Assembly (NCBI GenBank): GCA_958009085.1
Contig: OY253677.1
Span: 62,001-126,000 of the forward strand
Length of the DNA stretch: 64,000 bases
DNA from: Protoeuglena noctilucae
Taxonomy: Eukaryota
Direction of reading: 5' to 3'
The notes beneath the pieces are model-generated. The model was not told the DNA's origin and searched no databases. It saw only the letters and a program-made list of their open reading frames with translations. Shown in pieces: positions 2,176 through 34,525 of the stretch (positions are counted from its first letter, which is position 1; each line of letters starts with the position of its first letter). The translations under genes were made by a program, and so were the position numbers.

Positions 2176-2572
2176 GGCGTTGACAAGCGCGTGCGGTTAA
2201 GGGCGGACGACGGGCCAGGAGTCCAGCTGGGCGCGTGGGGGATGCGCCTGCAGCTACTGAGCAGCCACGTCCGTCACGTCCCTGGGATCTGCTGTTTCAA
2301 AAGCGTCTGCCAACGTCTACGGGAGTTTTCCCTGCTTGTGAGTTCGAAATAACTTGATGCTGACGCTGACACGCGCTCGCTTGCGCCAGCTGGGATCGCA
2401 AAACCGCTCCGTTCTAGTGCGGATGGACGTGAATGCCTTCAAGCGCATCTGGATGGGAACCGGAGGGCGGGGCAAGGGCGCACGGCCCGGGAAAAGTGCA
2501 CATTATCACGTGGGTTTGCTGAGTCGAAGGATTGAGGCCTGAAGAGTGGCTATAGCTTTGCTGCGCAACAAT

Positions 2573-3827
2573 ATGTCCTCAGCAAAACCCGATGCCAATG
2601 CCGGCCAGAGGAGGGACGCCCGCAAGGCGCCAAAACGCAGGCCCGCAGACGAGAGTTCGGTGCTGGTGAGCGATGGCGTGCGCTCCTGCGCTTGATGGTC
2701 GTTCCGACGACGCGAGCTGATTATCTTGCTGTGCATGCATCGGCACGTGCGCGGCGGGCCCACGCAGTTACGCGTGGTGGTGGCTCTGGCGGTGGTGACG
2801 GTGGCGGTCGGGGTGACGTTCGGGGCGGTGGTGTACCTGAGGGGCAGGGGCGTCGTGAGCCCGAAGGAGGTGTGCAGCAGGCTTCTGCGCAACATGATAT
2901 CGGTGCGGGAGGTCATCGGATCGCCGGAGTACGTGTCGCCACGCCTGGAGAGCGCGACGGCGTTCCTGGACATCCCGAAGAAGGTGCGGGGGGGACGCAG
3001 CGAGTTGCCTGGCGGTGGTGCAAGCAGGGAAACCATTAGCAGCACATGCCTATATGCTCCACATGCAGGAGCTGGACTACTCGGCGGGGCTGATGGAGGT
3101 GAAGGCCTCCCGGATCCCGGGCATCTACGGGGCCTTTGCGAAAGGTGGGGAGTGAGGGGTAAGGGGCGGGCATGCATCGGCGCCTTGGCCAATACCGTCC
3201 AGTCAATGTCGCCCACAGTGGACATCCCCTCCTTCACGCTCCTGGGGACGTACCCCGGCGACCTGTACAACACGGCCTACTACCAGCGGGTGGTGAGCGA
3301 CGACGACAAGCGGTACACCTTCGCCATCTTCCGTGCTGCGGAGAAGTTCCGGGCGTCGAACCAGGAGGTCACCTTCCACTTCCACCTCGTCCCCTCCCGC
3401 CCGGCCAACCCCACCGAGGGGACCCTCGTCAACGCCATCCCCTACGTGAACGAGGCGCCCGTGTGGGCCGACTACAACACGCTGGCGGTGACCACGTTTG
3501 GGTACATGCTGGACGGCACGCCCACGGCCGAGGACCCGGAGCGGGTGGCTGTGGTGGAGTACTACACGTGCCGGGACGTCAAGGCGGGGGACGAGCTGTT
3601 CGTGTACTACGGGGCGCAGTACACGCGGGACTACGACCTGTCCAGGAAGATCGGGCGCTGCCAGTCGAACAAGGAGCTGGTGAGGCTGGGGCTGACTGCT
3701 AGCCAGCGGAATGCTACAGCGCGGCAGCCAGAGTGCAATCAGTCCCTTCTCCCGTCTGCTGCAGTACATTGGGTATACCGGGCTGCCTGCGTGTCGGGTG
3801 CTGCCGGGCACGAGGGACGAGCTGTAG
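2573..3827 (+). CDS. SET-domain protein with N-terminal signal anchor and C-terminal RDEL (5 exons)
   Basis: Exon 2573-2665 is basic (RRDARKAPKRR). The exon from 2768 encodes the hydrophobic LRVVVALAVVTVAVGVTFGAVVYL. SET motifs: VKASRIPGIYGAFAK/VDIPSFTLLGTYPG, YVNEAP and TCRDVKAGDELFVYYG. A phase-0 intron at 3680-3764 precedes YIGYTGLPACRVLPGTRDEL*. Confidence 0.8.
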
Positions 3828-3846
3828 TGCGGCTGCTCCCCGCATG

Positions 3847-5091
3847 CCACCCTTTCGTGCCGCGTGCCCGAGGCTGTTTCAGGCGCTGCCAGACGCCAGC
3901 AGCCTCGTGCTCGGTGAACCAGGAAATTGCCGCAAAGACACTCGTTGATCGGCTGTCTGGTGGCATCGCAAAGGCAGCACAGGCGACGAGAGAGCCTTGA
4001 AGCTGTGATAGGGCGCAGCTAGGGCGAAATGGCTCGCGATTCCGAGGCAGGGGACGCGGGGACAGATGGCAACGAGTCCGATTGGGAGGCTGAGTTGGAG
4101 AGCGGGGCTCTCGCAAGGCGCCTCGAGGGCGTGGGGCTTGGCAATGCAGGTGACGCGGTGCAGGGCCCTGCGCCGCAGCGCAGGGGCGGCGATGGCCTAC
4201 GATATTTTGTGCGCAAGATCTTTATCTCCCCCACATGCCGAACGTGCGGTCTCCAGGCCCTCCCGCGCAGTCGCGGGTCCGCGACCAGGCGCATCGCATC
4301 CGTCCGTGCCACCCGGCGCCGCGGGGGAGCGGCGAGGCGTCCTCGCGTCGTCCAGAGACGTCGTTGGCTGGGATGATGCCTCCAGCGAGCGTCCACGGCC
4401 CCGGGACCCCCGGGACGACGCCGGGATGGCCGGCCCCACGTCGCCACTGCCCGACACGGTGGGTTCCCTGCCCGACGGGGCGCGGCACGTGCTGGAGCTG
4501 CACGGGTTCCCTCCCAGCACAGACCGGGAGGACGTGGACGCGGCGTTGGACGCCGTGAGCGGGGGGGCGCGCGTGCGACCCTACGTGGTGTGGGTGGATG
4601 ACACGCACTGGTGAGGGTGCCACTGGGGGAGCACACATGGCTGCTGCCGTGCCATCCAAGCAGCAGCTTCGTCTGCTGCCGATGCTTGATTCCATGCCCT
4701 GTACATTCAAATCACACCCGTCTGTTCGCCCGCAGCCTGGCGGTGTTTGCGGGGCCGGAGGACGCCCGTGCCGCGCTGGGGGCCCACTATGCGCGGCTGC
4801 GTGAGGAGGGCACCAGGCTAGATGGCGTGTCGATGCGCATGGCCGCCGACAGCGCCCACCCCGCCACGCGCGCCATGCCTCTGGGGCGACTGCCGCCCGC
4901 CAAGCCCAGGTGGGGCGAGGGGGGCGGGTGCTGGCAGATGCCTAGTGGCAGGTCGGGTCCAGCGCGGCAGCGTTAGGCAAGTGGCGTAGCAACCCGCTTC
5001 TGCTTTCAGGCCCAAGGGGACGGCAGCCCTGGCGCGTCGGCTGATCGGGGGCGCGCTGGGCATCGACATGGAGCGGCAGGTGGCGGCCATG
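3847..5091 (+). repeat. Direct repeat copy A (1245 bp), partner of 11549-12793
   Basis: Same sequence at offset 7702. The listed ORF translations on both strands match in the two copies. First mismatch seen at 5092/12794. Confidence 0.95.
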
Positions 5092-5335
5092 AGCAGGGAG
5101 GAAGGGGACCGTGGGGAGCGGGGGAAGAGGATGGCCAGCGAGAGCCGGGAGCTGAGGTGAGACCCCCCGGGGTGGAGAGCTGCGTGAAGGTGGGGGTGGA
5201 ATGGCAGGCAGGGATGTCAGGTCATGTGATGACGCACCACGCGGTGCGTGCAGGGAGCTGCGAGAGCGGACGGCGCGCGAGAGGGCGGAGCGGCACGCAG
5301 AGAGGGCGGCGGCCGAGGCACGCGCGTGGTACTGA
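4029..5335 (+). CDS. R3HCC1L: R3HCC1/R3HCC1L-like RRM-fold plus coiled-coil protein, intact copy
   Basis: Motifs HVLELHGFPPS, VVWVDDTHCLAVF and ALARRLIGGALGI. The charged tail ELRERTARERAERHAERAAAEARAWY* follows intron 5157-5253. Confidence 0.78.
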
Positions 5336-6945: not shown

Positions 6946-9027
6946 CTATTTATATGCGCTCAAAAGCCACGCTCTTCCGACGGATGGGTGTTGCCAGCAC
7001 GTAGAGGAGGTTGGAAAGGAGATCGAAGGTGCGCAGGGCGATCTTGAACCACATGCCCCTGTCCTCCCAAAACCCTCTCGGATCCTGCAATAATGGTCAG
7101 GGAGGATGGCTCTGCCAGCTGCCAGGGGTGATTCGCGCCGTCTCTGAAAGGACAAGGCCGCTTTGCATCGCCTCACCAACGCCAGCTTCACGACCACCAG
7201 CGCCACGACAAGGATGAGAATCGCAGCGGCAAGAGCGTACGCCTTGCGCGATGCCCACAAAATGACAGGTTTTGACAAAACGTCAGCTTTGCTTTGTGTC
7301 CATGGCAACGGCGGAGGGGGGGGGGAAGGCGGTGGGCTTGGCGGCGGAGGCGGCGACGGTGGTGGGCTGGGTGGCGGAGGCGGCGGTGGAGGCGAAGGCG
7401 GAGGACTAGGCGGCGAAGGTGGCGGGGGCGGCGGGGCACTTAGCACCCACCAAGGTGGCGGCGAGGGTGGCGGAGGCGGCGGCAAGGGTGGCGGAGGCGG
7501 CGGTGGAGGCGAAGGTGGAGGGCTAGGCCGGGGGGGGGGCGGGGCATTAAAAACCCACCATGGCGGCGGCGGAGACGGAGGGGGCGACGGCGGGGGAGGG
7601 GGCGAGGGGGGTACCATGAGGGTAAGCGATAACGGGGGCAGGGCAGCCCCGATCGTGCTCTTGCTGCCACCTCTGCCTAGGAAGTCGCCATAGCCGAGCT
7701 GGCCGAATGTGTTGTCTCCCACGCAAAAGATAGAGTAGGAAGACAGCAGCAAACAGGTGTGCCAACCCCCAAGCGCGACATGCGTCACAGGATATGACGA
7801 ATTGTAGCTCACAAAGGGCAAATTATTGCCCATGTCGCTGACACCGGCACCCCTGTTGTTTTTGTCGCCCACACCTAGCTGCCCGTAATTGTTTAGACCC
7901 CAGCACTTCACTGCACCCGTGGATACAAGTGCACACGCATGGAAATTTCCCACACCAATGCTTGAAACCTCGTAAGCGAGCCCGTTGTTGTCCGACCCGA
8001 GGTCCACTACGGTCAAAGGGCCGCCAGTGACTGTTTGCGCTGTACTCCCCAGGCCCAGCTGCCCGTAGCTATTGTCACCAAAGCACGTGACCTGCTTGTT
8101 GTTAAGCAAGACACAGGAGAAGGCATAGCCCACACCGACAGACACAGCTTTTGTGCCTGCGGGCAGCTGCACGGGTGCGAGGTTGTCCCCCAACGCCGAG
8201 CTTCCCTGGCTACCCGTATCACCGCCGAGCTGCGATCCGTTCCCCAGTAAGCCGGAACGTCCCCAGCATTTGACCGACCCGTCCGTGAGCACGGCGCATG
8301 CGGTGTACTGTCCCGTAGCTACCGATGTGGCTAGCACGTTCGTCCCCAGGTTGACGTACGGTAGCGCGCTGCCCATCTCTTGGGGCGAGGACCCGCGGCT
8401 GAGGTCATCCGTTACGCCTAGCTGACCAAAGTCGTTGCTGCCCCAGCACTTGATGCGACCCGCGCTGGATAGAGCGCATGAGTACCCTTGATACAGGTCG
8501 TACGTGTAGTTGTACATGTAAGTCGAGGACACCGAGACGTATGTATCGCTCCCCAGGGCAGCGGGCGTGAGCGTGCTGCCGCAGCTGCGCGATTTAACGT
8601 CACCCAAGCCGAGTTCCCCAAATTGGTTGTCACCACAGCACGACACGCTCCCCGCTGACGAAAGCGTGCACAGGAAGAGCCCTCCTGGGGACAGTCCCGC
8701 CACAGGCGAAAGGCCCGTCAGCGTGGGGATCGATACGACAGTCGCCGACCCTGGCGCCGACGTCGGAGATGGCGTTGGCGTTGGCGTTGGCGTAAAAGTT
8801 AGGGTGGGAGTGGTTACCTTCGTCGATGCCGGCGTTGATGGTGACTTTGGTGATGGTGTCGACACGACCGGAGGCTGAGGGATATCGCCCCAGCACATGA
8901 CCGTTCCATCGTAAAGAGTCGCGCATGTGGCGTGAAATCCCGCCGAAATGCTGGGCGTGATGGCCGTGCTGAGGTGGGCTATGAGCCCTGTGACCACAGC
9001 TACGTAGACGGCGTACCACCATCCCAT
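6946..9027 (-). CDS. Secreted/membrane RCC1(BLIP-II)-repeat beta-propeller protein with extensin-like Ser-Pro stalk and TM helix
   Basis: Signal peptide MGWWYAVYVAVVTGLIAHLSTA, repeated CWGxNxxGQLG units, a long SPPPP tract, and TM ALAAAILILVVALVVV. The likely true exon end is a GTGAG donor at 7176. Confidence 0.85.
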   Translation of the reverse strand: MGWWYAVYVAVVTGLIAHLSTAITPSISAGFHATCATLYDGTVMCWGDIPQPPVVSTPSPKSPSTPASTKVTTPTLTFTPTPTPTPSPTSAPGSATVVSIPTLTGLSPVAGLSPGGLFLCTLSSAGSVSCCGDNQFGELGLGDVKSRSCGSTLTPAALGSDTYVSVSSTYMYNYTYDLYQGYSCALSSAGRIKCWGSNDFGQLGVTDDLSRGSSPQEMGSALPYVNLGTNVLATSVATGQYTACAVLTDGSVKCWGRSGLLGNGSQLGGDTGSQGSSALGDNLAPVQLPAGTKAVSVGVGYAFSCVLLNNKQVTCFGDNSYGQLGLGSTAQTVTGGPLTVVDLGSDNNGLAYEVSSIGVGNFHACALVSTGAVKCWGLNNYGQLGVGDKNNRGAGVSDMGNNLPFVSYNSSYPVTHVALGGWHTCLLLSSYSIFCVGDNTFGQLGYGDFLGRGGSKSTIGAALPPLSLTLMVPPSPPPPPSPPPSPPPPWWVFNAPPPPRPSPPPSPPPPPPPPLPPPPPPSPPPWWVLSAPPPPPPSPPSPPPSPPPPPPPPSPPPSPPPPPSPPPSPPPPPLPWTQSKADVLSKPVILWASRKAYALAAAILILVVALVVVKLALVRRCKAALSFQRRRESPLAAGRAILPDHYCRIREGFGRTGACGSRSPCAPSISFPTSSTCWQHPSVGRAWLLSAYK

Positions 9028-10008
9028 GTTTGCGATGCCATAAGCCCTGGAGAGGAAGTGAACAGCACATGTGAGACAAACGTGCGGGTGCCGCTCACAT
9101 ATTTATTAAAAGTCAGTTCAATGCGAAGTGCAAAATGGTGTAAAAGCCAGAAAACTGACAAGATCATCACACGCGTGGCTCAAACAGAATTGTAGAAGTT
9201 TAAGAATGGCTTATGCGTCGCTGTGGGCCGAACAAGCTTAAGATGTAGCTGAGGCGCAATGAGAGGGCATGTGGCCATCACACGGCTCCAGAATGGCACC
9301 AGCATGGTAATGGCATGAAGATTCGTAAAGCAATGGCATTATCCTACCCAAAAAAATCTCATTTACTAGCAGGGGCTTTCCAGCGGTGCATTCCTGGGTC
9401 AACCTCGCAGCGCTATGCATAGCCATAGAAAAGACCCCCGAGATGGCTTCCATTATTGACTGGGACTTAGTTTGAGGAAAACCACGTTGACAGCGCGGGC
9501 CTTCTGGCGCAGAGAACCTCAGGAACGGCTGGGCCCAAGTTGGCAGGCCTAAAAACGTTTTACAGAGTGAAGAGAGGGCGCTCCATCCCGATCCTCTCAC
9601 CGGTGCTCCAAAATCAATATCTCAACCTCCAGTAGTGATGATCTGCCCGATTCACCCTCCTGCGGCGTCTCCCGGCGGGAGGCCGACTGCAACAACGCGC
9701 CGACTGCGCAGCTGGGCTTAAGCTGATGTGCGACTGCCAGCCCCTCTGCTTAATTTCGCTTGGTGCACATCGGGCGCTTTCCCGAAGAGCTGCAAATCTC
9801 GCTTGCAAGGTTTCTGGCGCGAATGCAGTCAGACTGCAGCACAATAACAATAACAGACAGCCGCATGCCTCCCCATCTCGCAAGTATGACTTGCTTAAAC
9901 TTGCACAGATGTCCATAACTTGGCTTGAACAGCAAATTACCACTCCCATTCGCCTGTATACAGCGCCCAGCCCCGGCTGTACCATCCCCTAGGAGGCCGA
10001 CACAAAGA

Positions 10009-11548: not shown

Positions 11549-12793
11549 CCACCCTTTCGTGCCGCGTGCCCGAGGCTGTTTCAGGCGCTGCCAGACGCCA
11601 GCAGCCTCGTGCTCGGTGAACCAGGAAATTGCCGCAAAGACACTCGTTGATCGGCTGTCTGGTGGCATCGCAAAGGCAGCACAGGCGACGAGAGAGCCTT
11701 GAAGCTGTGATAGGGCGCAGCTAGGGCGAAATGGCTCGCGATTCCGAGGCAGGGGACGCGGGGACAGATGGCAACGAGTCCGATTGGGAGGCTGAGTTGG
11801 AGAGCGGGGCTCTCGCAAGGCGCCTCGAGGGCGTGGGGCTTGGCAATGCAGGTGACGCGGTGCAGGGCCCTGCGCCGCAGCGCAGGGGCGGCGATGGCCT
11901 ACGATATTTTGTGCGCAAGATCTTTATCTCCCCCACATGCCGAACGTGCGGTCTCCAGGCCCTCCCGCGCAGTCGCGGGTCCGCGACCAGGCGCATCGCA
12001 TCCGTCCGTGCCACCCGGCGCCGCGGGGGAGCGGCGAGGCGTCCTCGCGTCGTCCAGAGACGTCGTTGGCTGGGATGATGCCTCCAGCGAGCGTCCACGG
12101 CCCCGGGACCCCCGGGACGACGCCGGGATGGCCGGCCCCACGTCGCCACTGCCCGACACGGTGGGTTCCCTGCCCGACGGGGCGCGGCACGTGCTGGAGC
12201 TGCACGGGTTCCCTCCCAGCACAGACCGGGAGGACGTGGACGCGGCGTTGGACGCCGTGAGCGGGGGGGCGCGCGTGCGACCCTACGTGGTGTGGGTGGA
12301 TGACACGCACTGGTGAGGGTGCCACTGGGGGAGCACACATGGCTGCTGCCGTGCCATCCAAGCAGCAGCTTCGTCTGCTGCCGATGCTTGATTCCATGCC
12401 CTGTACATTCAAATCACACCCGTCTGTTCGCCCGCAGCCTGGCGGTGTTTGCGGGGCCGGAGGACGCCCGTGCCGCGCTGGGGGCCCACTATGCGCGGCT
12501 GCGTGAGGAGGGCACCAGGCTAGATGGCGTGTCGATGCGCATGGCCGCCGACAGCGCCCACCCCGCCACGCGCGCCATGCCTCTGGGGCGACTGCCGCCC
12601 GCCAAGCCCAGGTGGGGCGAGGGGGGCGGGTGCTGGCAGATGCCTAGTGGCAGGTCGGGTCCAGCGCGGCAGCGTTAGGCAAGTGGCGTAGCAACCCGCT
12701 TCTGCTTTCAGGCCCAAGGGGACGGCAGCCCTGGCGCGTCGGCTGATCGGGGGCGCGCTGGGCATCGACATGGAGCGGCAGGTGGCGGCCATG
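11549..12793 (+). repeat. Direct repeat copy B (1245 bp), partner of 3847-5091
   Basis: Matches copy A. Diverged homology continues to about 12958. Confidence 0.95.
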
Positions 12794-12927
12794 TGCAGGG
12801 AGGAGGGGGACCGTGGGGAGCGGGGGAAGAAGATGGCCAGCGAGAGCCGGGAGCTGAGGTGAAAGGTTTTATATGATGACGCAAACACCGGCGCGGTGTG
12901 TGCAGGGAGCTGCGGGAGCCGGCATAG
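11731..12927 (+). pseudogene. R3HCC1L: Second R3HCC1L-like copy with decayed last intron and exon (truncated C-terminus)
   Basis: Matches copy A to 12793. The last intron is shortened (12859-12905) and the last exon stops early at TAG 12925-12927 (ELREPA*). Confidence 0.7.
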
Positions 12928-17238: not shown

Positions 17239-20211
17239 ATGGTCGCGTTTTCCGCCCTGAGGCGCCCCTGGCGGGGTCGGCGCGGGCCCCTCGGCGAGCA
17301 TGCCTGGGCCGGCTTGGTACCGCGCATCCCCGCCCCGGAGCGTCTCGGCTTCGTTGGCGCGAGGCCCGTGCTCTCGCGTGCCCTTGCTCTGGAGCTGGGC
17401 AGGGCCCTTGCGGCGTGGGCACTCACGTTGGCCTCCACCGAGCCCCCAGCCACGCCCCGCATGCGCCTGACCCCCTTCTCCCCGCTCCCCGCGCAGTCGT
17501 ACATCCCGCAGGAGGCGTCCCGCCTCACGAACGTGCTGGCCAACATCAAGCACACGTTCGTGGTGTCGGACGCCACCCTCCCCGACATGCCCCTGGTCTT
17601 TGCCAGCGAGTCCTTCTATCAGATGACGGGGTACACGGCTGAGATCCTGGGGCGCAACTGTCGGTTCCTGCAGGCGAGGAGAAGGATCTGCAGTTGGCGG
17701 GAGCGGCGCTGGCCCCACCCTCGCCTCGCTCCATGCCGACATCCCTCCTCTTCTACTTACCTCCCCTTGTCAACCACCTGCCCCACCCTCTCCCTCCCAG
17801 GGCGAGGGCACGGACCCCAAGGACCGCCAGAAGATCCGCGACGCCATCAGCCAGGGCAAGGGCGTGTCGGTGCGGCTGCTCAACTACCGCAAGGATGGCA
17901 CGCCCTTCTGGAACCTGCTGACCATCACGCCCATCAAGACGGCGGACGGGCGCGTGTCCAAGTTCGTGGGGGTGCAGATCGACGTGACGGGCAAGACGGA
18001 GGGGCGGCAGAGCAAGGACGTGTCGCTGGTGCGGTACGACGACCGGCTGCAGCACAACGTGGCCGAGGGCATCGTCAAGGACGTGACGGACGGGGTGCAG
18101 GAGGCGGAGTACGCCAAGGACGGCTCGCGGCCCAAGCCGAGGCGCTTCCCGCGCGTGGCCGTGGACCTGGCCACCACCGTGGAGCGCGTGCAGCAGAACT
18201 TCGTCATTGCCGACCCCAACCTGCCCGACTGCCCCATCGTGTTCGCCTCGGACGACTTCCTGCGGCTGACCGGGTACGCCCGCGAGGAGGTGCTGGGCCG
18301 CAACTGCCGCTTCCTGCAGGGGCCCGACACGGACCCCGAGGCTGTGAAGCGCATCCGCGGGGCGCTGGGGGCCAACAGCGAGGTCACGGTGAAGCTGCTC
18401 AACTACAAGAAGAACGGGACGCCCTTTTGGAACATGTTCACGCTGGCGCCCATCAAGGACGTGGACGGGGCCGTGCGCTTCTACATGGGGGTGCAGGTGG
18501 ACGTGACGGACCCCCAGTCAGCCAAGCAGATCGACGAGATGCAGCAGGCGGCCCTGCGCGCGGCGGTGGGGGACCTGGGGTCGGGGTGGGGCACGGGGGA
18601 CCCCTGGAAGGACATCCAGACGAACGTCATCCGCGTCAAGCCCCACCGGGGGTCGGACCCGGCCACGCTCGCCCTCAAGGCCGTCTTCGACCGAGGTGAG
18701 GGGAGATGGGGTGCAGGGGTGGGCAGCGATGTCATGAAGTGGACTCGAGTGGATCATGGTCGTTGTCTCACCCAGCTCTGTGCTCGGGTGGCTGCAGACA
18801 AGGAGATCAACATCAACCACTTCACGCGCGTCCGGCAGCTGGGGTCGGGGGACGTGGGCCTGGTGGAGCTGGTCAAGCTTAAGGGCACGGGTGAGGCAGA
18901 GGGCAGGGGCTGGCGGGAGATGGGCACGGTGACAGGCGGTGCAGGGACGACTGCGTGGGTGGTGGGGCAGGGATCTCTCTGAGCTGCCCGAAAAAACTCA
19001 TCTCACCCCCCTCCCCCTCCCCCTCGCCGCGCAGACTTCACGTACGCGATGAAGACGCTGAGCAAGCAGGAGATGCTGGAGCGCAACAAGGTGGCGCGCG
19101 TGATGACGGAGCAGCGCATCCTGTCCGAGGTAGACCACCCCTTCGTGGCCAACATGTACTGCACCATCCAGACGCCCACGCATTTGCACTTCCTCCTCGA
19201 GACCTGCGAGGGCGGGGAGCTTTACGCGCTGCTCAACAGCCAGCCCAACGGCCGCCTCAAGGAGCCGTACGTGCGCTTCTACACGGCCGAGGTGCTGCTG
19301 GCCCTGCAGTACGTGCACCTGCTGGGGTACGTCTACCGCGACCTCAAGCCGGAGAACATCCTCGTGCACGGCTCGGGCCACGTCATGCTCACTGACTTCG
19401 ACCTGTCGTACGCCAAGGGGGTCTGCAAGCCGCGCGTTGTGGACGCGGGCACGAGGGCGGTGGGGGCCAGGGGGGGCAAGGGCAAGGCGGCGGGGGGGCC
19501 GCGCGAGGTGCCCAACCTCATCATCGTCGCGGAGCCACAGGCGAGAGGGGGTCAGGAGATGCGCCTTACTCGTCTTGCCTCTCGTCGCTCGGCGCTCTCG
19601 CCCTGTCCTCGTCGCCCACCCATGCCGCCCCTCTCTGACCAACAGGCGCGCGCCAACTCGTTCGTGGGCACGGAGGAGTACCTGCCCCCCGAGATCGTGG
19701 CAGGCACGGGCCACGCGGCTGCGGCCGACTGGTGGTCGTTCGGCATCCTGGTCTACGAGCTGCTCTACGGGTTCACGCCCTTCCGCGGCGCGCGCCGTGA
19801 CGACACCTTCGACAACATCCTTAAGCGACAGCTGGTGTTCCCAGAGGCGAGCGACAAGGGGTGGAGACGGATGCGCAGTGCTGCCATCGATACCCTGTGT
19901 GTACTATCACTGTTAGATGGATACCGAGAGCCACTCATGCCCCGCCTGGGAATGTGCCCGCTGACCCTGCCGGCTCCTCTCCCTGTCCGCAGCAGCCCAA
20001 GGTGTCGCGCGAGGCCAAGGAGCTGGTCAGCGCCTTGCTGGTGCGCGACCCCTCCAAGCGGCTGGGCGCCGTCAACGGGGCCGAGGAGATCAAGGCGCAC
20101 CCCTTCTTCCGCGACGTGTCCTGGCCCCTCATACGCAACACAGCGCCACCCTTCCTGCCCCAGGCGGGCAAGAAGCCCGCCGAGGCCGCGCCCAGCATCC
20201 CCAACTACTAG
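17239..20211 (+). CDS. PHOT: Phototropin (LOV1-LOV2-AGC Ser/Thr kinase); start exon uncertain (ATG|GT at 17239 or 16938)
   Basis: Two [12 protein letters not shown] cores, linker [21 protein letters not shown], and kinase motifs [22 protein letters not shown] and [10 protein letters not shown]. Stop TAG at 20209-20211. Confidence 0.97.
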
Positions 20212-20315
20212 TGCCCGCTGACTGCCGCGTTGCTGTTAATGGTTGTTAGCTACTATGTTGTTCAAGCTAGGGTCTAGGGTGCTTCTAGGACAGTCAGAGA
20301 AGCCACAAGCTAGTC

Positions 20316-23300
20316 TCAGAGGAGAAGGGCAACGGCGCCCAGCACCACCAGGCCGGAGCTGACCAGGGTGGCGGCGGCGCCGCTCTTCTTCGTCGGCGCG
20401 GGCGTGGAGGTCTTCGTCGGCGCGGGCGTGGAGGTCTTCGTCGGCGCGGGCGTGGAGGTCTTCGTCGGCGCGGGCGTGGAGGACTTGGGCGTCGAGCTGC
20501 CGGGGCCACCGGTGGAGGCGGGCGTGGCGGCAGCGATGTACGCGGGGGCCGTAGTCACCGAAATGACCGGTGCCTGCGAGGGCGAGGGGAGAGTCGTAAT
20601 GAGTCCATGATCCTATGCAGGCGCTCAGTCCTCCGCGTCCCCTTGAGGCTTGCATGGCTCACCGAGATGTTGGCCAGGGCGCCTGACGCCGTCTCGAAGC
20701 TCCTCGTCAGGTTGTGGACCAGCTGGGACCCGGCCCCGAGGCTCGTGGTGACGGCGGTCTGGTTGGAGTTGGTCACTTGCACGCTGACATCCACGTTCAG
20801 AGTGTACTGCGGGTGCAGGGGTGCAGAGAGGACGAGCTGAGCAGCCTTGCAGCGCAGCAAAGGCCCAGTCAGGTCCCCCGCTTACCGTCATCAGCTTCCT
20901 GGACGTCCTCTCCCGGACGCTGATCAGGTCCTGAGAGATGCCCGTCTGCGCGGCCGTCTGCGTCTTGATGAGGCTGAAGATCGCCGTCTTGACGTCCACC
21001 GACGGGGGCTGGTCAAACACCATGGCCAGGCTGAACTGCACCACCGACACCGAGGCAGGGGGCGGGGTGTCGCCCGTCACGGCCCCGGACACCGTGACCT
21101 TGAAAGTCGTGGGGGCCACGGTCGGGCTGTAGCTCTTGGTGATGGCCTTGGTGGTCGAGTCCACTGTGTACTCGGAGCACGTGTATGTGACGGTGCCAGT
21201 GCCCTGCAGACATAGAAGGAGATGCGTTATAACCCTGTGCGCGTGATTAGCAGAGGCAGCAAAACAAACGTGCTTTGCTGCTATTATATCACCTTGGGGA
21301 CAGGGAGCTGGAGGTCGTATTTGTACGCCTTGGTGGTGTCGAAGCCGTTCGTGTAATCCGACGGCGTCTCGGTCGAGTAGGACGTCACCGTGGCCACAGC
21401 GTTTTGGAAATCTCCACTAGGAGACACAGGGGTGGCGTCGTTAGTGGTGGCTTTCTGGTTGCTGTTGGTAATGATGTCGCCGATGATGGTAGCATCGCTG
21501 GAAGTGCAACCGATGGCATTGGTTTGAGTAAGGGACGAGTCGGAGCTCATGATGGCCACCAGGCCCGGGATGGGGACGCCAAGGGCCTCAATGGACACCG
21601 AGGTCACCGCCGTCGGCGCCGTCTTGACAAACTTGGCGTTGCGCGTGCCTGCCACTGCCGTCAGCGTCTGGACAGGCTGTGCAGCCACCTTGAACGAGAA
21701 GGACGTGCTGGTCGTGTAGGATCCGGACCCGATCTGGGGCGTGCACGTGATGGTCGCAGTCACGTTGGCCGTGGCCGAGCTCTTGACGGTGAGGGTCGCG
21801 GCAGCCCCCGTGTAGAAGGCGTTGCTGGTGAGCGACACAGAGTTGGCGGTCGAGGTGTTGGAAACGGACACCGTGGACTGGTCCGAGGTGCAGGTCATGT
21901 TCAGCGCCACAGCAGTGGAAGTGTAGACGTAAATTTGCGTTTGCTGCGACACGCCAGACAGGATCGTGACGGTGTCCACCTTTTTGTAGATAGTGTACGT
22001 GGGCGTCGCCGCGATAAAGGACGTCCTGGCCGTGTAGGTGCTGGAGGTGGCGCGGAGGAAGTAGGCGCCCGCAGCTGGCACCCACACCTGGAAGCTCGCG
22101 GTGCCGATGGTCGCCGACACGTTGTCGCAGGTAGAGGCGCACGTGTACGTGACCAGCGTGTCCTTAGTACCGGTCCCAGCTGCCGTGAGGAGAGCGTTGG
22201 ATCCCGTCATTATGGCGTTGCGGTTGCCGAGCGCCCCCGAGTCTGTGGAGCTCATCGTCACGGTGAAGGTGGGCATCACCGACGTCGTGTCAGACGCGCA
22301 TGTGATCACGACGGAGGGATTCGACACGGGGGCCTTGAGCCTCAGGCTGATAGCACCTGACGGGACTGCGTAGCCAATCGGCACCACCATGGTCTTGGTG
22401 AGGTCGCCAGTCCCCGCAATGTCCGTCCCAGAAGCGATGCGACCGTAGTCCGAAGCGTTAGCCATGGTTGCATTCCCCGTCAGGACCTGGATGCCAGGGC
22501 CCACGACAGTGAGCTTGATGGACAGCGTCGTGCCCGAAATGAGGCCCTTCGCAGCGTTCGAGTCAGTGGCGGCGCAGGAGATGGTGACGTCGCCCGTCGA
22601 TAGCGCCGCCGGGATGGTCAGGTCAAACGTTTGGGAAGTCGAAGTGATGGAGTACGAGCTCGTTGAAGGCGTGCGCATAATCGACAAGGTCGACGACGTG
22701 CACGAGACCGTGTAGTCCGAGGCCACGTAGGGGGCGGCGACGGTGACAATGCCCGTGTAGTCCGCCTTGCGCACCTCAAGGACAGGGACCACCGTGGAGG
22801 AAAGCGTCTTGTCAGTGATGGACGCGCCCGTGGCATCCACAGCGTTCTTGCCGGCCGTGGCAGTCAGGACACCTGCCTTGACCGTGACGGTGAAATACAC
22901 CTTCTCGCCCTGCTTGATGCTTGCCGGAGCAGGCGTCGGGGAGGGGGAGGGGGTCGGCGCAGCGGGCGTCGCCGCAGTTGTGGCAGCGGGAGTAGATGCC
23001 GCCGTAGGAGCCGGGGTGGGAGTCTGGGCAGCCGGCGTGGCGCCGGGGGCGGTCGTCGCCTTCGGGGTCGCCGCGATAGTCGGCGACGGGGTGGGGGCGG
23101 CCACGTACACATCGCACGTGAACACGACGGAGGTGTCGGCGACGACATCAGACGAGCCGGGAAGCTTGAAGGCGGTCGCATTGGAAGACGTCGAGAACGT
23201 GAAGACCTGGGAGTAGGCAGCGCCGCTCGCAGCAAAGACCTTGCTGTTGGGAGCCGAGCACTGAATGGACGTTGACGCACCCGGCACCCCGTTCAAGCCG

Positions 23301-26300
23301 ATGAAGATGCTCGTCGAGTTGGCCACGCCCTCCGTCACGGAGATCGGCGAGGCCATGAGGTCATTGTTCTTGCTGTCAACAACAGTGATGGCCAGCGGGA
23401 CTAGGTTGACAGTGAACGAGGTGGAGATCCCAGCCGCGTAACCGCCGGCCGCAGCCTTGACCGCGCAGGTGTACTTGATGTCCATCGCCTTGTCGATCGG
23501 GGACGAGGCGGGGATCGTCAGCGGGATTGAGTGGCCCGCGGCCGTCTGAGTTGCGTCAAACGAGGCCAGGGTGCTGGGCACCGAGGACGTGCAGGTGACG
23601 GTCACCGCGCTCGTGGATGCGATGGGCAGGAGGATGCTTGCGATGGCACCGGCCGCGGTCGCCTGGCCCTCAACCACCACGGGCCTCAGGTCCACGAGGC
23701 CGGCCACCGGCGAGTACATCGGGTCAATGTACTCGTTGTCCAGCGACTCAGCAGGGAGGCCGTTGCTGTAGGCGGGCACGTTTGCGGAGGTCTTCCCCCC
23801 GACCGCGCGGATCGAGTAGGCGGCGACCATGACAGCCTTGGTGGTCGAGGTGGCGGGCACTGTCGAGGTGGACGAAGCCGCGCACGTGTATGTCACCGTA
23901 GTGTCCGTCGTCACGGCCGCGGGGGCAGGGACAGCGATGGTCGTGACCGCTGCCGTTCCGGAGACAGAGATCCCAGTGATGTCCTTCAGGACGGACGCGT
24001 TGCTCGAAGTGCAGTCCGCCGTCACGGTGTTGGCCGTGAGCGCCACGTTCAGGTTGAGAGTAATGACCGTGCCGGCAGCCGAGGCCGCGGACCCGGCAAC
24101 CAGGACGGGCGTCTGGGTGTGCGACGTGGCAATGTTGGCGTCGTAGTACTGAGTGGTGGGAGTAAGGCCCACGGCACCCGAGCCGTTGCCGGCGATGAGC
24201 GCAGGGGGAGCCACGAGCAGCGTGAACGACAACGACTCGCTCTTGGTGATGTGGGTCTGGGCAGACGAGCCCGAGCCCGTCACCACGTCAGCGTCGTAGC
24301 TGCACGTGTAGGTGATGAGGGTCGGCGTGGCGACCTTGGCCACGGCGGGGAAGCTCACGTTCGTGTACAAACCAGCCGCAAAGGCGACCGACGACACCGT
24401 GGCATTGCCGATGACCGTCGTGTCACTGGACTTGCAGGTCATGCTGCCCGCGGCGCCGAGATTGGCGGGAGCGTAGAGCTTCACCGAAGTCGAGTTGCCT
24501 GCCTGGCCGGCATACACGACAGGTACCTTGCCCTGGGCCATCGTGTTGAACTCGGCGGTCAGCTGATCGGTCGTGGCGCTTGCACGCGAGTTGCTGCTGA
24601 TGAGCTTTTGCTGGGCAGCGATGTAGGTGGCGAGGGCCGCGCTGTCATAGACCGGCAGCGAGGTGGGGGTAGTCCCAGTGCCCTCCGCCAGCGTAGCGCT
24701 CGTGGTCGATGCCGGGGTGTATATTTGAGCCAGGGAGCCGGCAACAGCCTGGGGGAACTTGGGCGTCACCAGGAATGACGTGGACACCGTCGCGCCGATG
24801 GCGATGCCGCCCACGTTGCCGCCCGGCGCCGTCCCCGTCCCCGTGTAAGTGTACGTGCAGGTCAGCGTCACGGACTGAGTGCCTGGGCCGATGGGATAGG
24901 CCTGGAAGACCGCGTCGGGGAAGGCAATGGTCTGGGGGGACGTGCCAACACCCGTGAGGGCCGGGATGGAGTTGGTGGTGCTCGTGGAGTCACCCAGGAT
25001 CTTGTCCGGCGAGCCCTTGCAGGTCCAGTTGACGCTGGACGAGGAGGCGGGGGCGTAGTTGGTGTCGATGCGCAAGACGTTGGCAAGGGACTGGCCCTCC
25101 GTCACAGCGACGACATCGCTGGAAGTGAGGACGTAGCCGGCCGACTTGGTAGAATCGCTGACGATTTTCCCGCTCGTGCCAAGGATCAGCTGGGCCTGGA
25201 TGGGCGCCACCTGGATCTTGAAGGTCACGTTGTCGCCAGCAGCCATCTTGCCGAAGGCGGCTGCCTTGCCGCTGGAGTCCACTGCCTGGCACGTGAACGT
25301 TACGGTGCTCAGGGACATGACATCGGCATAGGTCGAGTCCGTGCCGGTGGATGTCTGGAGGGGCAGAGCCGTGGCCGTCCCGGCAAAGGACGAGATCGTG
25401 GACTTGCTGGCGAGGAAGTATTTGAAGTCCGCGGTACAGGAGATGTTCGTCGTGCCCGCGACGCCAGCGGAAGAGTTGAGGCCGATCTTCACCAGAGTCG
25501 AGCTTGCCGTGTTTAGGGACTGCTCTGCGACGAAGCCCACGAGGTTCGTAGTCGCGCCGCCAGAGATGTCCACGTCTGTCCCGCTTGCCGGGGCAATGGC
25601 CGTCTTCTCGTCGAGGGCCTTGATCAGGCCGCCACCACCCGTGGCGTAGGCCACCAGCTTCATGGGGAGGATGGTCAGGGTGACCGAAACGGAGTCCGAC
25701 GAGTTGTTGCTGTCGCCGTACACGACACTGGTGTTGGTTGTCACCGTGGGCTGGCAGACGATGGTGACGGCCTGGCCCGTCGAGGAGCTGGGGATGTCGA
25801 GGCTCGTGTTGGGTGTGAGGCTCAGAGCGGATCCAAAGTTGGCGGCCGTGAGAGAGCTGGCCAGGATGTTGCTCGTGCTTGTGGAGCAGTTGAACGTCGC
25901 CGAAGTGTCGCCATCGGACCGGGCGACGGTGACGGTCGTCGTGCTGCCCTCGACAATGGACGAGGAGCTCAGAGTGGCCGACAAAGTGACCTTCTTGACG
26001 GTGAGCTTGAAGTAGACAGCGTCGCTCAGCAAGAACAGAGAGCTGTCCGTCTTATTCCCGTCCTTGTCCAGGTTTGTCACGGCGCACTTGAATGTCGTGG
26101 TGACGTCGGAGCCGTAGGGCGCGATGAGGACCGCCGTGGTGGCGTTGCCAGAGGCAGTCTGGTCGATCTTGATGTCGCTGAACGTCTTGGCATTGAGCGT
26201 TGCCACGTACGTGTTGGCGGGGGTTGCGCTGGGGTAGATGCGGTACGAGGCCGTCGCTGCCGTATCCTGGCAGGTGATCTCGACCGTGTTGGTGGTGCCG

Positions 26301-29300
26301 GGGTTGATGACGCTCGTCAGCGTGACCACGTTTGCGCCCGAGGACCCGATGGCTGCACCCTCGTAGAGAGTCATGACCTTGCACGAGTCGGTGGAGGTCG
26401 AGTCGAGGAGCGTCACGTCGAGGCCGGTATTGAGCGTCGCTCCGCTCACAGAGTTGGGGGCGGAAGATCCCGCTGTGATGCGGAACTTGGGCGTTACATA
26501 GAGTTGGAAGGACATGGTCGTCCCCGCCGTGAACCCGCCAGCTGTGGCGATGGGAGAGCAGTTGAACTGCACATACGTGGGCTGCACGTACGCCGTCGTG
26601 AGGACGCCAGCAATCTTGAGGGCCACGTCCGCCGTGGAGCCCTTGGGAAGCGTGACACCGGTGATGTCGCTGAGAACCTCAGGCACGCTGGAGAGGCAGT
26701 CCACGGTGACGTCAGCCGTGGGGGCCGAGGCGGGTCGGAGCTTTACCAGGTTCCCGTCGCTGTAGGTTTTGCCAACGAGCACGATGACCGTCGTCGAGTC
26801 AGCGATGGGGGACGACAAGAGCGTGCCAGCAGAGAGGGCGTTGCCGGAGCTCAAAGCGAAGGCGGCCATGTCGCCAGACCCGCCCGAGCCCGCCACGGCA
26901 GAGAAGGTGGAAGCCTGGATGGAGAGCGGGGCAGGTGAGGGAGCTCCCACGACTTGAATCTTGGTATTGAAGTACGCTGTGGCAGAGGTCAGGCCGGGCA
27001 AAGCGGTGGTCGGGGGGCTGGCACCCACGAGACCCGCGTCCATCGTGCCGGTATGCACGCATTGCATGTAGTACGTCCCGGCCTGCGTGAACTTAATGGC
27101 GATGCCGAAAGCCGAGGAGCCGCTGATGGTGCCGTTCGCACTGATGGCCGTGCTTGTCGCAGGCGTCACAGTGAAAGCAAAGCTGTAGCTTGTGGAGCCG
27201 CTGGTGGCCTCCGTGCTTGATGTCGCATTGGAGGTCGTGGTCGTCATGGCCCCTCCGACCTTGGCGGCGTTGACGAGGTCGTAGGAGTAGTACAGGGTGC
27301 ACGTGAGCCCAGCTGGCCCAGGTGTGCTGGCCGGGGTGTAGCCTTTGGTGGAGTTGAAGGTGAAGCTGTACGACTTGTTGATGACGACCGACGCCGTCGC
27401 CGCCCCCGTCAGGTCGTTCTGCTGCTTCAGAGTGACGCTGTCCTTCGAGTCCACGAGCTGGAAGACGTCCTCGGCACCTGAGACGGTGATGGCACCCGTC
27501 GTGAACCACTGCGTCGCTGTCGTGATGGCCGGAACCAGGCCCGTGTCGGCCGTGCCCGTGTGCAAGCACTGCATGTAGTACGTGCCCGCTGCGGTGAAGG
27601 TCAGCGCCACCGTCACGTCCCCAATCTGGCCGTTGGCAGCAATGGCGGTGGTCGCACCTGCCGCTTCAGTGAGCACGAACGAGTCGTTGCCGGCAGCGGC
27701 ATTCGTGGCACTGGAACCGCTAGAGATAGTCGTGAGCATGGTCCCGTTTGAGGCGGCCGTGCTCAAGCCGGAGTTGGTGTAGAGCTGGCAGGTGAGGCCC
27801 ACCACGGAGGTGGTGCTCTGGAGCGTGTACCCCGGCACCGAGTACAGCTTGTACGTGGACGTCACGCCCAGGGATGCCGTCATGGTCTGCCCCTTGGCCA
27901 GAACAAGGGATGTCGAGTCGGTGCTCTTCAGCTGGAAAACGTCGACGTTGCCAGTCACCGTCACCGCCGTCTGGAACCACTGCGAGGCCGTCGTGGTGGC
28001 CGAAACCAGGCCCGTGTCCGTCGTGCCCGTGTGTAGGCACTGGAGGTAGTACGTGCCCGCCGTGGTGAACGTGAGTGCGACCGTCACGTCCCCGATCTGG
28101 CCACTGGCGGCCACAGCAGTCGTGGCCCCCGTCACCTCGGTAAAGGAGAACGCGCTGCCTGTAGACGCGTCAGTGTGGGACGACGAGTTTGCCGTCGTTG
28201 TCGTCATTACACTGGCAGCGGACGTAAGATCCGACTTGGCGTAGGCCGTGCACGCGATCCCAACGGGGCTGGAGGAGCTCTGGGGCGTGTACCCCGTGAC
28301 CGAGTAGAGCTTGAGCGTCTGCGCCATGCCCACGTAGAACTGAGCCGGGGTCGCCGACGTCAGGTCCGCCTGGTTGGCCAGCGTCACCGAGTCGTTCTTC
28401 AGCGAGAAGACGTTGACGGCGCCCGTCACGGTGATCTTGGTCTGGAACCACTGGATGGCGGTGGCGAGCTTCAAAGCGTTCGTGTCCGTGGTGCCCGCGT
28501 ACGTGCACTTCAGGTAGTAGGTGCCTGCCTGCTTGAAGGTCACCGTGGCATACGAGCTGGTGTCCTTGACAACAGCGCCGGCAGTGTAAGCGGTGGTGCC
28601 CGCGGCGACATCGAAGGCAAAGGCCGCGGCGGTGCTGCCCGCCGGGGTCTGTGCGTCGACGCCTGACTGCTTGGCACCCAGAGAGAAGAAGCCACTGTTG
28701 TACACCAGCAGGGTCAGGGCCGCGTCCATGTAGGCCGTGCAAGCCACGCCGACGTTGCCGCTGTTGCCCGTGAAAGCCTGGCTCGCGTAGATCAGAACGT
28801 TGTACGCCTTATCGAGGGTGAAGGTCGTCGCAGTCGCGGTAGTGAGGTCGGACTGGTTGCTGATCACCAGAGGAGAGGCGTCGGTGGTCTTAAGCTGGAA
28901 GGCGTCCACGTTGCCGACCACCGTCACCGCCGTCTGGAACCACTCCGTCGTGGACGTCTTGGCCAGCAGATTCGTGTCGGTCGTGCCCGTGTGGAGGCAC
29001 TTGAGGTAGTACGTGCCGGCCATGTTGAACGTCAGGGTCACTGTCGCGTCCCCAATTTGCCCACCGGCGCTGATGGCCGCGCTCCCAGTGGCCTCCGTGA
29101 AGGCAAAGCTCGTCCCCCCGCTGACTGTGCCAGAGGACGCATTGGCGAAAGTGGCGTTGAGGATGTTGCCGGTAGCAGCGGTGCTCAGGCCCGTCTCAGC
29201 GCACGCAGTGCAGCTCACGCCGGCGACGTGGGAGCTGCCGTCACCAGTAAATGTGACAGTCGTGTAGAACTTGAGCGTCTGCGACTCGCCCAGTCGGAAG

Positions 29301-32300: not shown

Positions 32301-33646
32301 GCGACGCTGGCGGTTGGTGCAGCGGCAGTCGAGCCGACATGGACATGTGCGTTGAGCGAACTCGATGCAGTGCTCCCCGTCGTGAGGAGGACAGTCGTGG
32401 CCTCGGTGGGCGGCGTCTCAGCGACGCTGGTGGCGGCGGCGAACGCTGAACCATCCGATGCTTTCAGAGCGGACGTCGTTGCCTTGATGTCGAGGGTGGC
32501 CGTGGTGAGGACGGCTACCTTGAAGTAGACCGTCTGCGTGCCGATGATGACGTTGGTGCCGTCCGACAGCGCCCCGGAGGCGACGGTGAGGGTGCAGGTG
32601 AACTCGTCGGTCTCGGCAGTCGCTTTGGCGGCACCACCCGTGTCAGACCCGATCAGCGTGATGACGGGTGCGGTGGCGGTGGTGGAGTTGATGGCCGTGG
32701 CGGTGACCGGGATGGTTGTGAAGTCACTGGCCGCTACATGAATGCATGCGAAAGACCCTGAGCCGCCGGTGGGCGCCGTCAGCGTCGTCCCATCGGCCTT
32801 GACCATCTTGATCTTGAAGTACTTGCCCAGGTTGGCGGCCGTCTCGCCGGTAGGGATATACACGGTGGTTGCATCCGTCTCGTTCCTGGAGGCAGTCACG
32901 GCCAGCTTGGTGTCGTCCGTCACGGCCGCCGGCGTGGCGGCCGTGTTGTACAGCGTGCGGCCGAGGCTGAGCGCCGAGGCCGCGGCCACCACCTGAATGC
33001 CGCCGATGGCGCTGCTGCTGGGGATGACGGCCACGTGGAAGTTGAAGGTGGCGGTGTCGAGGTTGTACGCGCCGCCGTCCGACAGAGTGTTCTGACTCGG
33101 CGTGCAGACGAACTTATACAGGCCAGGGTCAGCATTGGAGGGGATCGCGCCCGAGTTGGCTCCGACCAGGGTGAACATCTCGGTAATAGCGGTGCTGGCG
33201 GTGCCCGTGATGGTGGTGCTTGTCACCGCTGCTCCTGACCCTGACGGGAAGGCGAGATTGGTGGGAGTCCCTGAATTAGCCACCCACGAAGCCGTGCACG
33301 ACACAGTTGCGGTACCGGTGTTGCCTGCAGCGTTACCGCCAACAGCTGTACTGAGGTACGTTGGGTAGGCCAGGCCCGCAGCAGGGACCTGGAACTGGAG
33401 CAGGCCCCCGAGGGTGGAAGCCGTCGCCCCTTGCGCGACATAGATCGTCCCCTTGTTGATGATCGTGGCGTCGACGGTAGTCGCAGCGGAGAGCACAGTG
33501 TTGGCGGCAATCGTGCTGCCGCCCGGGACGTCAATGCCCTTTACGGACGTGCCTGATTGAGGCGACACCGTGACGAACAGGGAGTTAGCACTCGCCACCC
33601 CCGCGAGCAGTGCGGCCGCCGCGAGGGCGAGGGCCAGGCGCCGCAT
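20316..33646 (-). CDS. Giant (~4350 aa) secreted Thr/Ala/Ser-rich repeat protein with Cys-paired beta-rich modules and probable GPI-anchor signal
   Basis: ATG at 33646 starts signal peptide MRRLALALAAAALLAGVASA. Exons: 33646-21293, 21203-20886, 20806-20663 and 20573-20316, all GT-AG and phase 0. C-terminus: PTK repeats then KKSGAAATLVSSGLVVLGAVALLL*. Confidence 0.88.
20387..20482. repeat. Coding minisatellite, 4 x 24 bp (STPAPTKT units in the giant protein's stalk)
   Basis: TCTTCGTCGGCGCGGGCGTGGAGG repeated four times. Confidence 0.95.
27954..29879. repeat. Near-identical ~500-bp internal duplication in the giant gene (27954-28454 and 29379-29879)
   Basis: Offset 1425 bp. Shadow ORFs 28053-28244 and 29478-29669 are identical, and only a few substitutions were seen. 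Confidence 0.92.
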
Positions 33647-34525
33647 GACTCCTGCGTGTGGGCAGACGAGGGCGCGCCGTTGCTGCCAAGGCGCCCGCGC
33701 GAACAAATACCATCACTTTACTGTTCTCCTCACCGTGGCCGAAGGGAGGGACGAGTGGTGGACGGCCAGAGCGCGATCCACGTCCAGGGACTCCCTGCAC
33801 AGCAGTAGCACTGGCGCAGAGAGCGTCAGCGTTTTGAAGAGTGTAAAAAAAGTCGAGCCGGCCGGCCGCTCGCACCCAAGAGCCTCACCTAGCGAAACCC
33901 AGCAAGTCGGCAGGCGCAGAAACCCGCCGAAATCTAGCCACAAGAAGCTGTCGCCCCGCGCAGACACGCCGGGGGAACGTACGCAATGCAGAGTAGCCCT
34001 TGCGGGCCACAGAGATAGCTCAGAACGGCGATCCACCTCGGCAGTGAAACAGCTGAGATCTGGCAGCAAGGGGAGAAACCCTGATAATATTGGAGTAGGG
34101 ATGCGGACTGACATGCCAAAGCTTTCATTTTCCGCAAAGGGAAAGGATATTGGCTCGACAGCCGTAGTGCAAACATCATAATTTGCCTACCATGCATATG
34201 GACGATTTTATTTTTGCTTATGTTCATCACAGGAGTGTCTTTCTAATTTATTCAAAGCCCTTTCCCCCTTTTCTCTTTCCCAGAAATTGTTTTATGGATA
34301 TCTGTTGGTGAAGATGAGCGTTCGGCGTTCGGAGACACGCCACGCGAAAACTTTGTGAAATTACTCTTCCTGACTCAATAGCAAAAGTCGATTTCTTCTC
34401 CTTGCTGGAGGGCTGTTCAGGCGAAAAAATGGTGCCAGCGCAGTTTTGCTGATTTTCCTTATTCTGTGGCCTGCAAGCAGAGGATTTCTTCAACAGCACT
34501 GCCCCTGCCACGATCATTTTTCGCT

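Follow-up and report, generated by a model that had tools for sequence, protein, structure and literature searches.

We analysed a 64,000-nucleotide (nt) stretch of DNA from Protoeuglena noctilucae (contig OY253677.1, positions 62,001 to 126,000; the whole stretch is called the window, and positions are counted from its first letter). Near its start lies a gene for a protein that combines a hydrophobic N-terminal segment, a SET domain and the C-terminal ending TRDEL. Direct reading of the DNA and translation of the exons gave a coding sequence (CDS) at 2573..3827 (+), with five exons and 302 amino acids (aa). All four introns are GT..AG, and we adopted this CDS because the RNA contigs of three runs (X1, X2 and X4) join every one of them: the joints 2665|2768, 2983|3069, 3144|3219 and 3679|3765 each occur in contigs of all three runs. 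These are metatranscriptome runs of three samples from a single study, and public runs were compared with the window over 2300–4100. The RNA evidence consists of assembled contigs, from which rare isoforms may be lost. RNA depth fell to zero in the bins that are wholly intronic (2666–2726, 3154–3214 and 3703–3763). A DNA run, X5, which is possibly the window's own source, was colinear with the window, unspliced and without the joint 3679|3765. A 173-nt X1 contig that matched only 2776–2807, with loose ends on both sides, was taken as unrelated.

The transcript starts with a 5′ untranslated region (UTR) at 2466..2572 (+), the longest RNA contigs beginning at 2466/2467 (X2 record 5, X4 record 6). 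There is no ATG in 2466–2572 of the transcript, and an in-frame TGA lies at 2540–2542. Exon 1 (2573..2665, +) encodes residues 1–31, a basic N-terminal tail, and intron 1 (2666..2767, +; 102 nt, phase 0) takes out an in-frame TGA at 2693–2695. Exon 2 (2768..2983, +; 216 nt) supplies the end of the tail, the membrane anchor and a stem with Cys67; the hydrophobic segment itself, a predicted signal anchor of 22 aa, occupies 2774..2839 (+; residues 34–55). Intron 2 (2984..3068, +; 85 nt) is followed by exon 3 (3069..3144, +), which encodes the first SET strands with an altered motif I, GIYGAFA, aligned to viral GLGLFA. Intron 3 (3145..3218, +; 74 nt, phase 1) leads to exon 4 (3219..3679, +), which holds the SET body and the start of the C-terminal flank, with Cys246 and Cys276. 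Within exon 4, YVNEAP (3443..3460, +) is the counterpart of NH(S/C) in the profile alignment, with Glu for His, and ELFVYYG (3593..3613, +) is the counterpart of ELxF/YDY, its catalytic Tyr assigned by pairing with EZH2 and PRDM9. Intron 4 (3680..3764, +; 85 nt, phase 0) separates this exon from exon 5 (3765..3827, +), which contributes 20 residues, including Cys292.

A preliminary description, drawn from the DNA letters, had predicted an RDEL ending that appears only once a phase-0 intron is removed. The prediction was borne out by the joint 3679|3765 in the RNA contigs and by two records from separate collections, P0007 (Logan) and P0011 (JGI/IMG), which match the spliced protein exactly and have the same C-terminus; each carries nine additional N-terminal residues from a prokaryote-style GTG start. 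The final codons, ACG AGG GAC GAG CTG TAG at 3810–3827, read T-R-D-E-L-stop, so that the spliced message ends in the [K/H/R]DEL pattern (RDEL codons 3813–3824, RDEL-TAG 3813–3827). With intron 4 unspliced, the frame would continue to 4000. Past the stop codon the RNA contigs extend into the 3′ UTR without a further joint, and RDEL is therefore the end of the message's open reading frame (ORF). The 3′ UTR covers at least 3828..3992 (+), with RNA contigs ending at 3992 (X1) and 4015 (X4) and running past 4100 in X2. One 1939-nt X2 contig spans the SET gene from its 5′ UTR to beyond 4100 and reaches into the ORF that follows (ATG near 4031), which could reflect abutting or overlapping transcripts or a join made in assembly.

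The protein has four parts: a basic N-tail, a 22-residue anchor, a stem of about 50 residues, and a SET domain whose C-terminal flank has two of four invariant cysteines (residues 67, 246, 276 and 292). The basic N-terminus and single hydrophobic helix named in the preliminary description were both found. Residues 1–33 contain nine Lys/Arg against four Asp/Glu, for a net charge of +5 over the whole tail, and residues 34–55 form the sole strongly hydrophobic segment, with a maximum Kyte-Doolittle (KD) 19-residue mean of 2.60 and no other mean above 1.6. AlphaFold placed a long helix over this segment, at P0007 residues 36–66.

A divergent SET domain

By Pfam alone the domain is borderline. The SET model (PF00856) matched P0007 at 21.4 bits (E 3.6e-4; model positions 2–105 of 105) against a gathering cut-off of 22.4. 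Among the relatives it matched P0009 at 22.5 bits and P0008 at 16.6 bits and gave no match to P0010, and exon 4 alone produced only a sub-threshold C-terminal match. A profile built from the family only (A3) matched PRDM9 (E 0.0016) and LegAS4 (E 0.009) in the PDB, and hhalign aligned it to a profile of 16 viral SETs (A7) with a probability of 97.2% (E 3.8e-11, 103 columns). Pairwise alignment also linked the family to P0031, a 591-aa protein from a 315-kb JGI contig that scores 36.4 bits with Pfam SET and is the closest full-domain outgroup. The two share 28% identity over 172 residues, insertions included (pairwise E 6e-14), with YINEPP and FT..G.YPG in P0031. Unlike the family, P0031 starts at the SET domain and has no anchor, carries a 400-residue unrelated C-terminal extension and does not conserve the four cysteines.

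We utilized AlphaFold to model the protein. The eight-row, family-only alignment A3 gave a predicted local distance difference test (pLDDT) score of 38 and was unusable; the 29-row alignment A6 gave a mean pLDDT of 66, with 75–95 in the core. VIA returned Z 11.2 to SET7/9 (root-mean-square deviation 4.0–4.2 over 139–142 residues) and Z 10.9 to SETD8, and 283 of 613 chains had Z of 8 or more. Foldseek against the PDB gave at least 344 matches at E≤1e-3, the top ranks all being SET or PR domains, and a structure search of a viral library also returned SET proteins. Because A6 included bona fide viral SETs, the structural agreement depends in part on sequence homology. In a protein language-model atlas, the protein adjoins SET clusters (0.94). 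On the family profile, the P0031 alignment and the AlphaFold model, we firmly conclude that this is a genuine SET fold, though a divergent one.

We also considered a PRDM identity. The PR-domain model (PF21549) matched P0007 at 20.2 bits and P0009 at up to 23.0 bits, over model positions 96–119 only. These scores are below its cut-off of 27 bits and Pfam found no zinc-finger domain, so this identity was rejected.

Structurally, the nearest known domains are those of SET7/9, SETD8 and MLL. As in these, the motif III Asn and the ELxxxY Tyr are in place, and SET7/9 likewise has a C-terminal flank after the core. The family differs from classical SETs in having NE for NH and GxxG or ExxG for GxG, in lacking the CxCx4C post-SET zinc motif and in carrying two insertions in the SET-I region. 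The complete set of SET motifs read in the preliminary description therefore held in part: the fold, the Asn and the catalytic Tyr are there, whereas the Pfam score stays below threshold and two motifs are altered. Its reading of the NH motif as NE was correct, with Asn kept and Glu in place of His throughout the family.

The best sequence bridge to the family is provided by small viral SETs (vSET-like, about 95–180 aa), found in IMG/VR and at metagenome loci L005–L007, L011–L012 and L018–L041. They resemble the family in GxGxFA, in Y-x-N-E-S/A in one subgroup, and in VKAGDELF..Y.RDY, which recurs almost letter for letter. They differ from it in being bare SET cores without anchor, stem, SET-I insertions or Cys-bearing tail, and in mostly having the canonical NHS. 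The N-E-S/G viral or virus-like subgroup (L018, L020, L022; L005–L007, L011–L012) also shares VKAGDELF..Y.RDY with the algal family, which poses the question whether genes have passed between viruses and these algae.

The family and the surrounding DNA

The family is very narrow and reaches about four other marine algal genomes. An exhaustive search of 1.84 billion representative proteins gave 12 at E≤1e-3; besides the window protein, the kin among them are P0009, P0010 and the fragments P0023 and P0025. One further match, the bacterial cadherin-repeat protein P0024, was taken as spurious or low-complexity. Three word-indexed homologue searches returned five, six and seven proteins, with P0008 as the sole added kin. 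A metagenome scan gave 14 loci, and the true relatives are in L001–L004. L001 (40–561, 1107–2136) and L002 (3–521, 1154–1918) each hold two paralogues in tandem, the P0009 type first and the P0008 type second, which are about 50–60% identical to the window protein and represent one related genome. No second family copy was found in the window by tblastn.

The anchor is shared by the relatives. Exon 2 is also 216 nt long in L001 copy 2, L003 and L004, in hand-built models with good splice sites, and the 22–25-residue anchor, the basic N-tail and the stem Cys are kept in these three, the relatives with upstream DNA; their exon 1 models were built by hand from the DNA alone. Across the family the N-tails measure 23–33 residues with six to nine Lys/Arg, and the anchors have a maximum KD of 2.3–2.6. 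The relatives' tails are rich in Arg, Ala, Gly, Ser and Thr, with no more than one acidic residue. The four cysteines are invariant wherever the region is available, the three of the SET and tail part in every member, and none forms a CxxC pair. Since the relatives keep all these elements and the outgroup P0031 has neither the anchor nor these cysteines, the anchor, stem and Cys-bearing flank are the family-defining innovation. Intron 4 is missing in the relatives, where NKEL-YLG is read straight through.

Two groups of proteins outside the family also came into view. Loci L008–L010 were rejected as members: the match (VNEKPVW..VKAGDELFV) covers 63 residues at 33–40% identity inside a 751-aa ORF (for example L008 1–2253), in which the VNE..VKAGDELFV-like stretch lies upstream of an unrelated large domain. 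P0032 and P0033 are distant NE-type (RINEP) algal Pfam-SET proteins with hydrophobic, signal- or transit-like N-terminal extensions, so targeted NE-type SETs may be more widespread in algae.

Elsewhere in the window, a 1316-bp direct repeat occurs at 3847–5162 and 11549–12864, with four mismatches and a spacing of 7702 bp. Its first copy begins 20 nt past the stop codon of the SET gene, taking in the SET 3′ UTR and the beginning of the gene that follows. GC content in the 6.4 kb that separate the copies is 56–57%, against about 65%, and an RCC1-repeat ORF lies there at 6949–9102 (−). We rejected a pair of long terminal repeats, as the repeat lacks TG..CA ends and the sole internal ORF scanned (6949–9102) encodes RCC1 repeats, not reverse transcriptase. 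Two adjoining ORFs at 17627–20218 (+) contain two PAS/LOV-type domains and a Ser/Thr kinase domain, the layout of a phototropin, which is a green-lineage feature. Taken together with the matches in marine metatranscriptomes, this identifies the organism that expresses the SET gene as a marine green alga. An uninterrupted ORF of 4142 codons at 21287–33712 (−), with a GC content at third codon positions of 0.85, matched no Pfam family at E≤1e-5.

Orientation, the RDEL ending and catalysis

In the reading we prefer, the family consists of type II, lumen-facing SET enzymes, and retention in the endoplasmic reticulum (ER) is special to the window species. We give this reading about an even chance, as it depends on an inferred orientation, activity and supply of S-adenosylmethionine (SAM). 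The anchor would enter the ER membrane during translation, leaving the N-tail in the cytosol, so that the SET domain would face the lumen. There the four cysteines may form two disulfides; the absence of CxxC spacing and of a CxCx4C motif suggests a disulfide-braced flank in place of a zinc post-SET. The flexible C-terminal RDEL would be read by the ERD2/KDEL receptor, keeping the protein in the ER of the window species, and relatives without an xDEL ending would proceed to Golgi or post-Golgi membranes. The SET domain would then methylate lysines of lumenal or secretory proteins from SAM. As far as the sequences go, this layout suggests protein methylation inside the secretory pathway.

The relatives carry much of the case for orientation. 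Their 15-residue N flanks have charges of +3, +3 and +2 in L001 copy 2, L003 and L004, against C flanks of −1, 0 and −2, giving C-minus-N differences of −4, −3 and −4. Flank charges thus predict N-in/C-out in three of the four members, those of the window protein being balanced; if the orientation is common to the family, the family would therefore be type II. An uncleaved anchor is preferred because the hydrophobic stretch runs to 22–25 residues without a conserved AxA after it, and on the same grounds a cleavable signal or a thylakoid-type bipartite presequence was disfavoured. Alternatively, the anchor may be cleaved in the window species, with RDEL retaining a soluble form in the ER.

For the ending itself, the probability of a [KRH]DEL C-terminus arising by chance is 4.1e-5, calculated from the family's own composition. 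This is far below the share of xDEL among lumenal proteins, and RDEL is thus informative for a signal-anchored protein. The tail (P0007 residues 305–311) was modelled with pLDDT below 50 and no secondary structure; in this disordered state, RDEL would be exposed. RDEL is also a structurally characterised ligand of the KDEL receptor, for which RDEL-bound structures are reported (10.1101/2021.03.21.436307; PMC8248988).

Several findings weigh against the type II, lumen-facing enzyme with ER retention. The type II topology that the preliminary description derived from the positive-inside rule is clearly predicted for the relatives but is ambiguous for the window protein, whose flanks carry +2 (N) and +3 (C), a difference of +1 that does not predict type II. 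An xDEL ending is present in one of four complete C-termini. The others are CRVV (L001 copy 2, in four cluster members), RREGG/QRKGG and KEKPK (the L004/P0010 type), although the relatives' contigs stop 60–70 nt past these stop codons and an unrecognised terminal intron is possible there. Beyond the last conserved Cys-Arg/Gln-Val-x, every member's tail differs. As xDEL is not conserved in the relatives, RDEL is best regarded as a species-specific ending on a variable tail. The preliminary description had treated anchor and RDEL as two targeting signals in independent agreement, which is true of the window protein only, and had counted a lack of both in homologues as evidence against itself: the anchor is kept in all three relatives, and xDEL is lacking. 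More weakly, the 302-aa window protein and the SET-exon part of six other family sequences lack N-glycosylation sequons, where a rough estimate expects about 0.5 per protein. On the catalytic side, motif III keeps Asn and replaces His with Glu, the family YVNEA pairing with YINHA in EZH2 and YINFS in LegAS4. Motif I is altered to G-I-Y-G in the window protein, G-N-F-G in L004 and E-I-F-G in L001, compared with viral G-L-G, and Ile occupies the catalytic Tyr position in the P0010/L004 type, in six of six cluster members. Finally, the full-text literature that we searched describes neither an ER-lumenal SAM pool nor an ER-lumenal SET enzyme.

These points can be read in other ways. RDEL might be accidental on a fast-evolving tail, the protein being either a Golgi or post-Golgi type II protein or one whose SET domain is cytosolic (N-out, C-in). 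The divergence of the tails in all four member types, three of them without xDEL, agrees with this, as do the window flanks, which slightly favour C-in. Long, very hydrophobic anchors tend to favour translocation of the N-terminus, and, to our knowledge, all characterised SET enzymes act where SAM is plentiful. The KxKxx dilysine pattern acts on a cytosolic C-terminus, and the KEKPK ending would fit it. That ending was read at L004 3489–3518, in P0010 and five cluster mates, the same protein that has Ile at the catalytic Tyr. We did not use KEKPK as a dilysine ER signal, as it would require the opposite topology and the pattern is common by chance (about 0.5% by our own estimate). A chance RDEL would be a 4.1e-5 event, much rarer than xDEL is among lumenal proteins. 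A cytosolic SET domain also conflicts with the clearly more positive N flanks of three of the four members, with the cost of translocating N-tails that hold six to nine Lys/Arg, and with four invariant cysteines without CxxC, which would fit disulfides better than a cytosolic zinc site. We consider this reading, in either form, unlikely. The basic N-tail could instead be an organellar presequence, with the protein anchored in a plastid or mitochondrial membrane and RDEL irrelevant. The relatives' tails, rich in Arg, Ala, Gly, Ser and Thr and nearly free of acidic residues, resemble green-algal transit peptides, P0032 and P0033 have targeting-like extensions of their own, and plastid SET enzymes exist, Rubisco LSMT being an example (PMC11012178). 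Yet the tails are only 23–33 residues long and run at once into a 22–25-residue segment with a maximum KD of 2.3–2.6, the window tail contains four acidic residues, and RDEL would again have to be chance at 4.1e-5. Very hydrophobic N-proximal segments of this type are normally captured by the signal recognition particle. An organellar location is therefore improbable in our view.

Another possibility, compatible with any location, is a SET fold without enzyme activity: like most PR domains, the protein would be a pseudo-methyltransferase, and it would act as a binding module in the lumen or close to the membrane. For its C-terminal half, the best sequence matches in Pfam and the PDB are indeed PR domains (PRDM2_PR, PRDM9). 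One of three relatives with a readable exon 3 has lost the first Gly of GxG, and the window protein and L004 have GxxG spacing. The family thus fails two classical SET tests, the His of NH and GxG, and the L004 type also lacks the catalytic Tyr. Against this stand the invariance of the Asn, of the Tyr-Val-Asn-Glu block and of Tyr-rich residues on the substrate side, and the retention of the ELxxxY Tyr in three of four member types; motif IV, kept in the P0008 and P0009 types, pairs ELFVYYG with ELFFNYG in EZH2 and ELLVWYG in PRDM9. PRDM9 is an active enzyme, and LegAS4, likewise an active SET, has NF where the His would be, so the His of NH may not be obligatory. NE also recurs outside the family, in P0031 (YINEPP), in P0032 and P0033 (RINEP) and in a viral-SET subgroup (YCNES, YANES, YANEG; L018, L020, L022), which suggests a functional subtype. 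The loss of activity is thus a serious possibility, though we hold it to be less than likely.

A possible SET enzyme of the secretory lumen

The SET methyltransferases known so far are nuclear, cytosolic or organellar. The window protein has an N-terminal anchor and a C-terminal RDEL, and we know of neither in a characterised SET enzyme. The full-text literature that was searched describes no lumen-facing or type II SET. With the K/H/RDEL ER residents that are clients of the ERD2/KDEL receptor, the protein shares RDEL on a flexible tail; typical clients are soluble chaperones and folding enzymes, whereas the window protein is predicted to be membrane-anchored and its signal is not conserved in relatives. 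In layout, the nearest counterparts may be the plant pectin and xylan methyltransferases, which are type II proteins with a short tail, an anchor, a stem and a lumenal catalytic domain; they have non-SET folds and methylate polysaccharides. The Golgi enzymes of this kind indicate that SAM reaches the secretory lumen in the green lineage, since plant Golgi polysaccharide methylation is reported to depend on SAM import into the Golgi (10.1101/2021.07.06.451061). The nearest idea in the literature concerns the diatom BacSETs, diatom-specific SET methyltransferases proposed to modify cell-wall-forming proteins, which are products of the secretory pathway (10.1101/2020.11.23.393678; PMC11151724). 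They belong to a different lineage: the window organism, with its phototropin-type gene, is a green alga and not a diatom.

We tentatively propose, while holding it less likely than not, that this is the first SET lysine methyltransferase working in the ER lumen. In a small clade of marine green picoalgae, a virus-like SET core would have been brought into the secretory pathway through the gain of a signal anchor and of a disulfide-braced C-terminal flank that replaced the zinc post-SET, and in one species RDEL would then have fixed it in the ER. Should the orientation or the activity fail, what remains is a lineage-restricted, membrane-tethered SET protein of modest interest.

If the proposal is true, the early secretory lumen of these algae must receive SAM, and methyl-lysine must be placed on lumenal or secreted proteins by an enzyme. 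A lumenal SET would raise the questions of how SAM reaches the ER or Golgi lumen of algae, which secretory proteins bear methyl-lysine and how a zinc-dependent cytosolic fold was re-engineered for an oxidising compartment. It would also offer a tractable 300-residue model for the unsolved lysine methylation of secreted cell-surface proteins, such as the silaffins of diatoms.

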